A stretch of 64,000 nucleotides of DNA from Escherichia phage ECP2301. Position numbers and translations under genes: made by a program. The notes under the pieces were generated by a model. It was given only the letters and a program-made list of their open reading frames with translations. It was not told the DNA's origin and did no database searches. This document shows, in pieces, positions 4,259-5,276 of the stretch (position 1 is the stretch's first letter; the number at the start of each line of letters is the position of its first letter). The stretch lies in the sequence record OR880646.1; one strand, 5' to 3'.

Positions 4259-4334
4259 TGGTCGAGGCAGTAGGGATCGAACCTACGACCTAGGACTTAG
4301 AAGGTCCTTGCTCTTCCTTCTGAGCTATGCCCCG
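4259..4334 (-). tRNA. tRNA-Arg (anticodon TCT)
   Basis: Manual fold: acceptor CGGGGCA/TGCCTCG, T-arm GTAGG-TTCGATC-CCTAC, anticodon loop TTCTAAG, CCA encoded. Confidence 0.75.
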
Positions 4335-4338
4335 TAAT

Positions 4339-4414
4339 TGGGGTGACCGATGGGAGTCGAACCCATGACTACGAGAATCACAATCTCGAGTTCTACCAAC
4401 TGAACTACGGCCAC
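4339..4414 (-). tRNA. tRNA-His (anticodon GTG)
   Basis: Manual fold: acceptor GTGGCCG/CGGTCAC, D-arm GTTC/GAAC, anticodon stem CGAGA/TCTCG with loop TTGTGAT, T-arm ATGGG-TTCGACT-CCCAT, CCA encoded. Confidence 0.65.
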
Positions 4415-4528
4415 ATTAATACCTACTCCAACAATCAAGATGTCTTCACACGAAATTAAGAGAAGAGTGATCAGTTCAACCCCTATAATCGCGTCAAGTA
4501 GATATTAATGTGACAGTTGTCACAAATT

Positions 4529-4603
4529 TGGCGGACGTGATAGGATTCGAACCTATAACCAATCGCTTAACAGGCGATCGCTCTGCCATTGAGCTACACA
4601 TCC
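4529..4603 (-). tRNA. tRNA-Asn (anticodon GTT)
   Basis: Manual fold: acceptor GGATGTG/CACGTCC, anticodon stem ATCGC/GCGAT with loop CTGTTAA, T-arm ATAGG-TTCGAAT-CCTAT, CCA encoded. Confidence 0.65.
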
Positions 4604-4607
4604 AAAT

Positions 4608-4694
4608 TGGTGGGGAGTGGTGGAGTCGAACCACCCGAGTCGCAATGACAATGGATTTACAGTCCACACCGCTACCTATACGGGATAACTCCCC
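4608..4694 (-). tRNA. tRNA-Tyr (anticodon GTA), long variable arm
   Basis: Manual fold: acceptor GGGGAGT/ACTCCCC perfect, anticodon loop CTGTAAA, long variable arm, T-arm GGTGG-TTCGACT-CCACC, CCA encoded; D-arm imperfect. Confidence 0.6.
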
Positions 4695-4703
4695 AAATTA
4701 ATT

Positions 4704-4778
4704 TGGTGGCCCTGGGTGGAATTGAACCACCATCTGGCGATTATGAGTCGCTTGCTTGAACCTTCCAGCTACAGGGCC
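4704..4778 (-). tRNA. tRNA with CAT anticodon (Met, or Ile if C34 is modified to lysidine as in the T4 tRNA-Ile position)
   Basis: Manual fold: acceptor GGCCCTG/CAGGGCC, anticodon loop CTCATAA, T-arm GGTGG-TTCAATT-CCACC, CCA encoded; same position as tRNA-Ile in the T4 cluster. Confidence 0.65.
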
Positions 4779-4779
4779 T

Positions 4780-4855
4780 TGGTGCTGATTGACGGAATTG
4801 AACCGCCGACCTTCTCATTACAAGTGAGTTGCTCTACCTACTGAGCTAAATCAGC
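4780..4855 (-). tRNA. tRNA-Thr (anticodon TGT)
   Basis: Manual fold: acceptor GCTGATT/AATCAGC, D-arm GCTC/GAGC, anticodon loop CTTGTAA, T-loop TTCAATT, CCA encoded. Confidence 0.75.
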
Positions 4856-4860
4856 AAAAC

Positions 4861-4950
4861 TGGCGGAGGCGATAGGATTTGAACCTATGAGTCGCCGGAG
4901 CGACTGCCGGTTTTCAAGACCGGTGCATTAAACCACTCTGCCACGCCTCC
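4861..4950 (-). tRNA. tRNA-Ser (anticodon TGA), long variable arm
   Basis: Manual fold: acceptor GGAGGCG/CGCCTCC, anticodon stem CCGGT/ACCGG with loop CTTGAAA, long variable arm, T-arm ATAGG-TTCAAAT-CCTAT. Confidence 0.75.
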
Positions 4951-4952
4951 AG

Positions 4953-5026
4953 TCTCCATACAAGGATTTGAACCTTGGACCTCCTGATCCCAAATCAGGC
5001 GCTCTACCAAACTGAGCTACACGGAG
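4953..5026 (-). tRNA. tRNA-Pro (anticodon TGG), CCA not encoded
   Basis: Manual fold: D-arm GCTC/GAGC, anticodon stem CCTGA/TCAGG with loop TTTGGGA, T-arm CAAGG-TTCAAAT-CCTTG; 3-prime end abuts tRNA-Ser. Confidence 0.7.
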
Positions 5027-5036
5027 TAAATTAAAT

Positions 5037-5110
5037 TGGAGCGGATAATGAGAATCGAACTCACATCATCAGATTGGAAGTCTGAGGTAATACCATTATA
5101 CGATATCCGC
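5037..5110 (-). tRNA. tRNA-Gly (anticodon TCC)
   Basis: Manual fold: acceptor GCGGATA/TATCCGC, anticodon stem TCAGA/TCTGA with loop CTTCCAA, T-loop TTCGATT, CCA encoded. Confidence 0.75.
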
Positions 5111-5115
5111 AAATT

Positions 5116-5202
5116 TGGTGCGAGAAGTGGGACTCGAACCCACAAGGAAATCATTCCGCAGCATTTTAAGTGCTGTGCCTTTACCAATTTGGCCATTCTC
5201 GC
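5116..5202 (-). tRNA. tRNA-Leu (anticodon TAA), long variable arm
   Basis: Manual fold: acceptor GCGAGAA/TTCTCGC, anticodon stem CAGCA/TGCTG with loop CTTAAAA, long variable arm, T-arm GTGGG-TTCGAGT-CCCAC, CCA encoded. Confidence 0.75.
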
Positions 5203-5203
5203 G

Positions 5204-5276
5204 CTGGGAATAAAGGACTCGAACCTTTGCATCCTGGAATCAAAATCCAGTGCCTTACCAACTTGGCTAATTCCCA
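5204..5276 (-). tRNA. tRNA-Gln (anticodon TTG), CCA not encoded
   Basis: Manual fold: acceptor TGGGAAT/ATTCCCA, anticodon stem CTGGA/TCCAG with loop TTTTGAT, T-arm AAAGG-TTCGAGT-CCTTT. Confidence 0.75.

Follow-up and report, generated by a model that had tools for sequence, protein, structure and literature searches.

A segB-free, T2L-type tRNA operon in Escherichia phage ECP2301 with a putative inserted tRNA-His module and its structured RNA leader

The tRNA region of phage T4 (NC_000866, 70908-72530) has the order Gln-Leu-Gly-Pro-Ser-Thr-Ile-segB-Arg-rnaD-rnaC. The tRNA region of T2L (EMBL AJ880101) is without segB and carries tRNA-Met(CAT), Tyr, Asn and Arg together with two open reading frames, ORFs (Brok-Volchanskaya et al. 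2008, PMC2330249). The endonuclease SegB prefers to cut at the 3' end of tRNA-Asn, and in crosses of T4 with T2L segB was found in 99.6% of the progeny and the T2L cassette was lost (PMC2330249). Phage T6 (AP018814), with the order Gln-Leu-Gly-Thr-Ile(T4-type)-Tyr-segB, is another mosaic. In this study, we report the analysis of a cluster of 11 tRNA genes at 4259-5276 in a 64,000-nucleotide stretch of Escherichia phage ECP2301 (OR880646.1), which as a whole is referred to as the window. We consider it highly probable that the cluster is the Tequatrovirus tRNA operon in a segB-free allele, made up of a T2L-type cassette and an inserted tRNA-His module with a structured leader. The cluster itself is an ordinary, known locus, so that its earlier description is correct and of little significance as a gene cluster; the modestly novel part is the conserved structured RNA that precedes tRNA-His, together with a tRNA-His gene that does not encode the nucleotide G-1.

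All 11 tRNA genes were placed on the minus strand by ARAGORN, whose calls matched in coordinates, anticodons and order those of the original prediction, which had been made by folding the sequence by hand. The genes for Tyr, Asn and His, on which that prediction most depended, were called with the same identities, and no tRNA beyond the 11 was found by the ARAGORN scan of the 64-kb window. In transcription order the genes are Gln, Leu, Gly, Pro, Ser, Thr, a tRNA with the anticodon CAT, Tyr, Asn, His and Arg, as follows.

5203-5276, minus strand: tRNA-Gln (UUG); ARAGORN anticodon ttg, Rfam 67.4 bits; without CCA, abuts tRNA-Leu
5116-5202, minus strand: tRNA-Leu (UAA); ARAGORN taa, Rfam; CCA encoded
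5037-5110, minus strand: tRNA-Gly (UCC); ARAGORN tcc, Rfam; CCA encoded
4952-5026, minus strand: tRNA-Pro (UGG); ARAGORN tgg, Rfam; without CCA, 1 nucleotide (nt) from tRNA-Ser
4861-4950, minus strand: tRNA-Ser (UGA); ARAGORN tga, Rfam; CCA encoded; carries the secondary SegB site
4780-4855, minus strand: tRNA-Thr (UGU), T4-type; ARAGORN tgt, Rfam
4704-4778, minus strand: CAT-anticodon tRNA; ARAGORN cat, Rfam
4608-4694, minus strand: tRNA-Tyr (GUA), long variable arm; ARAGORN gta
4529-4603, minus strand: tRNA-Asn (GUU); ARAGORN gtt, Rfam 74.1 bits
4339-4414, minus strand: tRNA-His (GUG); ARAGORN gtg, Rfam; C73 and CCA encoded
4259-4334, minus strand: tRNA-Arg (UCU), T2L-type; ARAGORN tct, Rfam

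The Rfam tRNA model detected 10 of the 11 genes at 59.9-74.1 bits (gathering score 29). The remaining gene, tRNA-Tyr, has a long variable arm and gave only a below-threshold match under the related tRNA-Sec model; it is identical at 85 of 87 positions to the tRNA-Tyr of T6, an experimentally studied gene. Low-scoring Rfam matches to YrlA, sX4 and Plastid-ycf2 were rejected as tRNA look-alikes overlapping real tRNAs. As had been noted before, Gln and Pro are without an encoded CCA and adjoin Leu and Ser, and the other nine genes encode it. The tRNA-Gln and tRNA-Leu sequences are expected to form a dimeric precursor, as in T4, and tRNA-Pro and tRNA-Ser would form another. The tRNA-Ser gene encodes its CCA (...GCCAG, 4861-4864), like that of T2L, whereas the T4 tRNA-Ser gene does not, so that CCA addition during maturation of the Pro-Ser precursor should be needed for Pro only.

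The locus occupies the same genomic position as in T4, between the e.x/rnaC/rnaD side and the trna.2-4/ipI/57B side. It shares with T4 this neighbourhood, the strand, the first six tRNAs (88-100% identical), the abutting Gln-Leu and Pro-Ser pairs with their members lacking CCA, and rnaD and rnaC downstream. The set of eight tRNAs that had been given for T4 is correct, and all eight anticodons are also present here. By blastn, window positions 4759-5859 correspond to T4 72014-73113 (94%) and 3548-3892 to T4 70825-71168 (95%), and further colinear blocks exist; the interval 3892-4759 gave no T4 homology by blastn, and in T4 its place is occupied by segB. The homology thus breaks inside the CAT tRNA (~4759) and at rnaD (3892). 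Identity to the T4 genes is 74/74 for Gly, 86/87 for Leu and 72/76 for Thr; Pro and Ser are identical except for their 3' tails; and Gln is identical at 65/74 positions, all of its differences lying in the anticodon stem-loop and being compensatory. The CAT tRNA and tRNA-Arg, on the other hand, differ from their T4 counterparts (about 61% identity), the former matching T4 tRNA-Ile at 47/77 positions and sharing with it just about the first 20 nt, and the latter matching at 48/79. The T4 cassette contains the 3' part of tRNA-Ile, segB and tRNA-Arg; that of ECP2301 is without segB and contains the 3' part of a different CAT tRNA, Tyr, Asn, a 114-nt non-tRNA stretch with the pre-His element, His, a different tRNA-Arg and an ORF of 116 amino acids (aa), of which Tyr, Asn, the pre-His element, His and the ORF are extra relative to T4. 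Because the homology breaks at 4759 and 3892, and because the CAT tRNA and tRNA-Arg are so poorly alike, the difference from T4 is, on this comparison, an alternative cassette of ~870 bp (3892-4759) and not three insertions. An insertion of Tyr, Asn and His between Ile and Arg, as originally proposed, can be maintained for His, which comes with the structured gap, but not for Tyr and Asn, which are part of the alternative cassette.

The accompanying view that a T4 set of eight had been expanded is contradicted by the T4 x T2L crosses, in which the T4 cassette overwrites the Met/Tyr/Asn/Arg cassette (PMC2330249). Since the T4 cassette is the invasive one in these crosses, the eight-tRNA set of T4 is one allele among several, riding with a selfish endonuclease cassette, and not an ancestral baseline. 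T4 should not serve as the baseline for T-even tRNA sets, and the region has the make-up of a mosaic, its cassettes being swapped through SegB homing and recombination. A smaller exchange may be seen in tRNA-Gln, where the anticodon arm (5236-5252) is CUGGA/UCCAG here and UAGCA/UGCUA in T4, next to further differences at positions 32 and 38; with the rest of the gene identical to T4, this swap by compensatory changes looks like a small gene-conversion patch.

The comparison with T2L was made with the AJ880101 primer sequences quoted in PMC2330249. Eight of these primers fit the genes for the CAT tRNA, Tyr, Asn and Arg and the 116-aa ORF with 0-1 mismatch: primers #5 (CAT tRNA), #6 (tRNA-Asn) and #7 (tRNA-Arg) match exactly, the tRNA-Tyr primer and #13 (tRNA-Arg) match with one mismatch, and #24 and #25 match the 116-aa ORF. 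The primers for the T2L 'trna.1' ORF had no match in the window; this ORF is missing here, and a T4-type tRNA-Thr is present instead. According to the primer coordinates, tRNA-Arg of T2L begins ~4 nt after tRNA-Asn, and because Arg nearly adjoins Asn there, ~194 nt comprising a hairpin, the pre-His element, tRNA-His and a 4-nt spacer are extra in ECP2301. The two phages further share CCAG in tRNA-Ser and, at the 3' end of tRNA-Asn, the preferred target of SegB.

4527-4553, minus strand: SegB preferred 27-bp recognition/cleavage site GGTTCGAATCCTATCACGTCCGCCAAA, at the tRNA-Asn 3' end; match to the published T2L site

The sequence GGTTCGAATCCTATCACGTCCGCCAAA differs from the site in tRNA-Ser exactly at positions 6, 16, 18, 26 and 27 (G6, A16, G18, A26, A27), and the same five nucleotides separate the preferred from the weaker SegB site in T2L (PMC2330249). 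No segB homologue was found in the whole window (tblastn of T4 SegB, E up to 10), and no such ORF lies between the tRNAs. Judged by these matches, the segment is a segB-free, T2L-type allelic form of the Tequatrovirus tRNA operon. Because its tRNA-Asn carries the preferred SegB target, we predict that the cassette will be cleaved and overwritten when a phage with segB infects the same cell. T6 shares with ECP2301 the nearly identical tRNA-Tyr; it differs in being without Pro, Ser, Asn and His and in having segB directly after Tyr, and as the window is without segB, SegB-driven amplification in cis is unavailable here. In the T6 record (AP018814) the ORF beside tRNA-Tyr is annotated 'serine recombinase', at the place where the T6 paper puts segB.

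The arrangement is widespread. A 1.4-kb region of the cluster had matches in 1075 phage records, in 265 of which a single place covered at least 80% of the query. Identity in these 265 records was 98-99.4%, with Yersinia phage ZN18 at the top (99.4%), followed by dozens of Tequatrovirus phages of Escherichia, Shigella, Salmonella and Yersinia at 98.5-98.9%; the segment from tRNA-Asn through the gap to tRNA-His alone was at least 95% identical in 200 records. The record of phage fPS-65 and similar ones annotate the same 11 tRNAs in the same order. Given these counts and annotations, the cluster is a common allele of the T-even tRNA region that is already annotated in GenBank. In the GenBank feature lists the CAT tRNA is labelled Met throughout, and among the features listed a 'tRNA-OTHER' (ZN18, HP3.1) or 'tRNA-Val' (UAB_60) may correspond to tRNA-Tyr.

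For codon use, the 19,351 codons in 66 long window ORFs were set against the 14,748 codons in 42 annotated genes of E. coli K-12. The eight T4-type tRNAs read codons among the most over-used relative to E. coli, namely AGA (8.3-fold), ATA (5.4-fold), TCA and ACA (3.9-fold each), GGA (3.8-fold), TTA (2.9-fold), CCA (1.9-fold) and CAA (1.6-fold). Asn and Tyr codons are also over-used (AAT 3.1-fold, TAT 2.3-fold), and His codons are under-used (CAT 0.75 and CAC 0.27 times the host value). The suggestion that the extra anticodons might match enriched codons was therefore borne out for Tyr and Asn and not for His, and codon supply accounts for the first two genes only. Tyr, Asn and His are three of the four queuosine-family tRNAs, with GUN anticodons, and colicin E5 cleaves exactly the tRNAs for Tyr, His, Asn and Asp (PMC1635277). 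The tRNA-Tyr of T6 counters Septu (EcB88, which targets tRNA-Tyr) when its gene dosage rises (Chihara et al. 2026, PMC13096335), and the tRNA-Tyr of T5 counters retron-Eco7, which targets tRNA-Tyr (PMC11555353). By analogy, a role in tRNA replenishment and counter-defence is plausible for the Tyr-Asn-His trio. As His codons are under-used and GUN tRNAs are struck by known nucleases, the replacement of tRNAs cleaved by host defences would be the likeliest selective reason for His, and it may be a second reason for Tyr.

That the extra tRNAs serve purely to supply codons to an AT-rich phage, with no part in counter-defence, is possible but in our judgement rather unlikely. Such a role agrees with the excess of AAT and TAT and with the fit of all eight T4-set anticodons to the most over-used codons, but it leaves tRNA-His over; moreover, GAT, AAA and GAA are over-used and very abundant, yet there is no Asp, Lys or Glu tRNA, and a tRNA-Tyr differing at two positions from the present one, that of T6, has a demonstrated anti-Septu effect. 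Several of the 'extra' T-even tRNAs now have a demonstrated or plausible role in counter-defence.

The identity of the CAT tRNA had been left as Met or Ile. This caution was apt, and the evidence favours Ile2. The best match among 5,424 E. coli genomes was a gene annotated as tRNA-Ile. The phage tRNA is identical to E. coli tRNA-Ile(CAT) at 62/76 positions, sharing its acceptor-stem pairs and the whole of its 19-nt anticodon stem-loop, and to the elongator tRNA-Met gene metT at 49/82. E. coli tRNA-Ile2 is of the ileX/ileY type, in which TilS modifies the CAU anticodon to lysidine; the phage tRNA agrees with it in these two features and is divergent in the D-arm and T-stem. C4-G69 and C5-G68 are determinants for TilS. 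In the codon comparison ATG stood at 0.75 times the host value, beside the 5.4-fold excess of ATA. The CAT tRNA is thus most likely tRNA-Ile2, a lysidine-dependent reader of AUA and not a tRNA-Met, and would be functionally equivalent to the tRNA-Ile of T4 though no close homologue of it. The T2L paper and most GenBank records probably mislabel it as 'tRNA-Met', a widespread mis-annotation whose correction could be of practical value.

The interval 4415-4528 between tRNA-Asn and tRNA-His had been described as a 114-nt gap with a palindrome and no tRNA. The palindrome is present, and neither ARAGORN nor Infernal found a tRNA there. Folded on the tRNA-sense strand, the interval reaches -32.7 kcal/mol, compared with -20.6 +/- 2.8 for shuffled sequences (z = -4.36; 0 of 200 shuffles as good), and contains the following parts.

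4509-4524, minus strand: short hairpin (the palindrome), UGUGAC-AACU-GUCACA; from folding
4415-4509, minus strand: pre-His element, 95 nt; from folding, conservation and covariation
4496-4509 (5' arm) and 4415-4428 (3' arm), minus strand: closing helix of the pre-His element, 13-14 bp
~4448-4495, minus strand: hairpin A (variable) of the pre-His element
4431-4443, minus strand: hairpin B (small) of the pre-His element

The short hairpin is specific to Tequatrovirus, and Karamvirus shares its 3' half only. The closing helix, 5' AUUAAUAUU... / ...AAUAUUGAU 3', is kept in all copies of the element, and its 3' arm always ends at position -1 of tRNA-His. By sensitive blastn, tRNA-His and the element (window 4338-4512) are 80-92% conserved in Karamvirus and Jiaodavirus, where the element has tRNA-Gln before it and tRNA-His after it. 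More diverged copies are present at this position in Winklervirus and Kagamiyamavirus, and between Ser and His in Gualtarvirus; further variants came from IMG/VR. The element is present in at least six genera of Straboviridae, and it is unannotated in every annotated record examined.

In an alignment of 11 sequences, 95.2% of the closing-helix cells are paired, compared with 36-52% when the partners are slid against each other, and four pairs change on both sides. Among 13 distinct arm pairs, each arm pairs at 14.2/15 positions with its own partner and at 13.3/15 with crossed partners, and 12 of 20,000 permutations reach the observed sum, a figure that is no true probability. Helix position 11 is A-U in seven and U-A in six of the 13 arm pairs. 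RNAalifold, run without a supplied structure, arrived at the helix as well as hairpin B, the latter with GC/UA/AU/UG variation; of the 20 pairs that it predicted, nine are compensatory. Of the helix cells, 26/182 are G-U pairs; these can form on the tRNA-sense strand alone, which speaks for a structure of RNA rather than of DNA.

No Rfam family was found for the gap (E up to 1 over 3000-7000), and at E up to 10 over 4395-4545 only chance matches to microRNA and long non-coding RNA families appeared (E = 1.7-7.4); the pre-His RNA is therefore missing from Rfam as well as from the annotations. A search of the literature found no described pre-His leader, within a coverage that is thin for T4 papers of the 1970s-80s in subscription journals. 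Other identities for the gap were considered and rejected. A decayed tRNA was rejected for want of any ARAGORN or Infernal signal; a peptide gene was rejected, all transcript-strand frames having stops and none being conserved across seven copies; and a paralogue of rnaC or rnaD was rejected, the best local alignments being trivial (score 16).

The tRNA-His gene is identical at 75/76 positions to its copies in Karamvirus and Jiaodavirus, in which the other shared tRNAs are 54-86% and the element 80-86% identical. By this contrast in identity, tRNA-His and the element appear to be a laterally exchanged, inserted module. The module sits directly behind the CCA-A of tRNA-Asn, at the point that SegB cuts preferentially. 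An insertion at the SegB cut point is suggestive, yet any tRNA boundary is a natural junction. In Escherichia phage teqskov (locus L008, 1192-1398) the element is intact and tRNA-His is deleted save for its first three bases; the upstream tRNA there is chimeric, with a 5' half from Thr and the anticodon arm and 3' half from Asn, and ARAGORN makes no call on it.

It is unlikely, in our estimate, that the gap is functionless, being a decayed tRNA gene, a recombination scar or a spacer with an incidental hairpin. The region shows plain signs of recombination, from lineage to lineage the element varies greatly in its interior or has it replaced, and the teqskov locus, where the element outlived tRNA-His, indicates that it can be a relic. 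Against these observations stand the compensatory changes that keep the helix in at least six genera, including the A-U to U-A flip at 7:6, the constant position of the 3' arm at tRNA-His -1, the fold z of -4.36, and the lack of tRNA similarity even at E up to 10.

The closest described analogues of the pre-His element are rnaC and rnaD of T4, which are likewise structured non-tRNA RNAs (~100-140 nt) within the tRNA transcription unit, bounded by tRNA processing sites. They differ from it in that rnaC has a tRNA-like T-arm, which the element does not have, and in that the element sits between two tRNAs, with its helix reaching tRNA-His -1. We propose, by this analogy, that it belongs to a loose rnaC/rnaD-like class. 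The 11 tRNAs with rnaD and rnaC would be transcribed as one polycistronic precursor, as we infer from homology with T4 and from inter-tRNA spacers of 0-10 nt. Maturation of this precursor would fall to RNase P, 3' trimming enzymes and the CCA-adding enzyme of the host, the last being needed for Gln and Pro. The closing helix would join the 3' trailer of the upstream tRNA with the 5' leader of tRNA-His. The 3' end of the element is expected to come from cleavage by RNase P at His +1, and its 5' end from endonuclease cleavage and trimming after the upstream CCA, so that it may be excised as a discrete, exonuclease-resistant RNA protected by its terminal helix, analogous to rnaC and rnaD. It may aid processing, or shield tRNA-His while it folds.

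Other long inter-tRNA spacers in the clusters of Karamvirus, Jiaodavirus and Kagamiyamavirus (loci L003, L004 and L012) fold as a long closing stem around an interior. These are Asp to Met (127-161 nt), Lys to Asn (150 nt), His to Ser (96 nt) and Ser to Ile (66 nt), and some of the closing-stem sequences are common to several genera. These spacers may be further unannotated structured RNAs. In Enterobacter phage Entb_43 (L003, 382-477) ARAGORN calls a 96-nt 'tRNA-Phe' that is not in the tRNAscan-based annotation, and immediately before it come 50 nt that match the 5' end of T4 rnaC. This 'tRNA-Phe' is apparently the 3' portion, tRNA-like in form, of an rnaC homologue inside a Karamvirus cluster. 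Structured non-tRNA RNAs among the tRNAs seem to be a recurring feature of such operons, with rnaC and rnaD as the classical examples.

The tRNA-His gene of the window has its G1 at 4414 and a T at position -1, with C73 and CCA encoded. Position -1 is T in 15/15 phage tRNA-His loci examined, which comprise the window, ten related Straboviridae loci, Cinqassovirus, two Vequintavirinae and one mycobacteriophage; they cover six genera of Straboviridae besides that of the window, and C73 is retained. In the chromosomal tRNA-His of Salmonella, used as a control, this position is G. Bacterial tRNA-His has G-1 together with C73 as its major identity set, and G-1 is normally encoded by the gene (PMC9976931). 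With this identity element missing, efficient charging and translational use of the tRNA-His are uncertain, and how, or whether, a phage tRNA-His without an encoded G-1 is charged becomes a concrete, testable question. Our literature search found nothing on G-1-less tRNA-His in enterobacterial phages. A more far-reaching proposal, which we regard as speculative and improbable, is that the element is an undescribed conserved Straboviridae RNA family obligatorily coupled to a G-1-less tRNA-His; its helix might then set the 5' end of tRNA-His, for example through an alternative cleavage that leaves an extra 5' nucleotide, or the tRNA-His might be a decoy or sponge for nucleases of the GUN/queuosine-family tRNAs.

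There is little likelihood that the gap is instead a DNA element, such as a promoter within the operon that serves His-Arg-rnaD-rnaC, a mobile element of the miniature inverted-repeat kind, or a target for a nuclease or for recombination. The T4 tRNA region has internal promoters, and the gap shows terminal inverted repeats with a variable interior, lies exactly at the SegB cut point after the CCA of tRNA-Asn, and belongs to a module that has moved between genera. Nevertheless, no minus-strand promoter-like site was found within 4415-4528, and the 26/182 G-U cells would become A-C mismatches on the other strand or in a cruciform. The compensatory changes keep pairing and not a protein-binding sequence, and there is a single copy at each locus examined. 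A search for the junction pattern in bacterial and archaeal genomes returned at least 120 loci, all of them chance, with no tRNA at the site among the matches listed, and no copy of the element was present at the bacterial loci among them.

Several points weigh against our interpretation of the locus as an operon with a functional, structured His leader. The tRNA-His is without an encoded G-1. The case for co-transcription and for excision of the element comes from T4 and from geometry, and in a promoter and terminator scan of 3400-6400 the counts were not above shuffled expectation. The covariation sample is small, its 13 distinct arm pairs being related by descent. The interior of the element is replaced wholesale between lineages, which argues against a sequence-specific trans-acting RNA; a hairpin-like spacer may suffice. 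As for counter-defence, the codon comparison is built on ORF proxies from 64 kb and on 42 E. coli genes, and an anti-defence effect has been shown for the tRNA-Tyr of T6 and T5 only, not for Asn or His (PMC13096335, PMC11555353).

We also see little likelihood of a T4-type eight-tRNA cluster expanded by Tyr, Asn and His between orthologous Ile and Arg genes. In its favour, the order follows that of T4 once the extra genes are set aside, the tRNAs from Gln to Thr have 88-100% identity to their T4 counterparts, and tRNA-His does act as an inserted module. Against it, the CAT tRNA and tRNA-Arg match those of T4 at only 47/77 and 48/79 positions, 3892-4759 has no T4 homology where T4 has segB, the cassette holds a 116-aa ORF absent from T4, and in the published crosses the T4 cassette displaces the Met/Tyr/Asn/Arg cassette, not the reverse (PMC2330249).

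Downstream of tRNA-Arg, the T2L-type cassette ends with the 116-aa ORF, which is followed by the two stable RNA genes and a terminator-like site.

3892-4242, minus strand: 116-aa ORF, the 'trna.2 ORF' of T2L in the sense of the 2008 paper; phrog_3355, E = 4.7e-55
3776-3892, minus strand: homologue of rnaD (T4 'species 2' small stable RNA), 109/118 identical to T4; right-hand boundary of T4 homology
3631-3769, minus strand: homologue of rnaC (T4 'species 1' small stable RNA) with tRNA-like T-arm, 137/139 identical to T4
3557-3580, minus strand: terminator-like hairpin and T-run, from a pattern match; such sites are not above shuffled expectation in the region

The 116-aa ORF had no Pfam match. 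It lies between tRNA-Arg and rnaD, which are adjacent in T4, and its stop codon is at the rnaD homology boundary. No Rfam family detects the rnaC and rnaD homologues. The hairpin at 3557-3580 is the probable end of the tRNA/stable-RNA transcription unit. Further out, three minus-strand ORFs at 2340-2903, 3029-3502 and 6302-6559 have similar N-termini (MKTYAEFLTEA..., MKSYAQFLNEA... and MKTFKEFATKT...), a resemblance that points to a small family of paralogues on either side of the tRNA region. Over 24 nt, positions 2998-3021 match T4 70834-70857 in inverted orientation.

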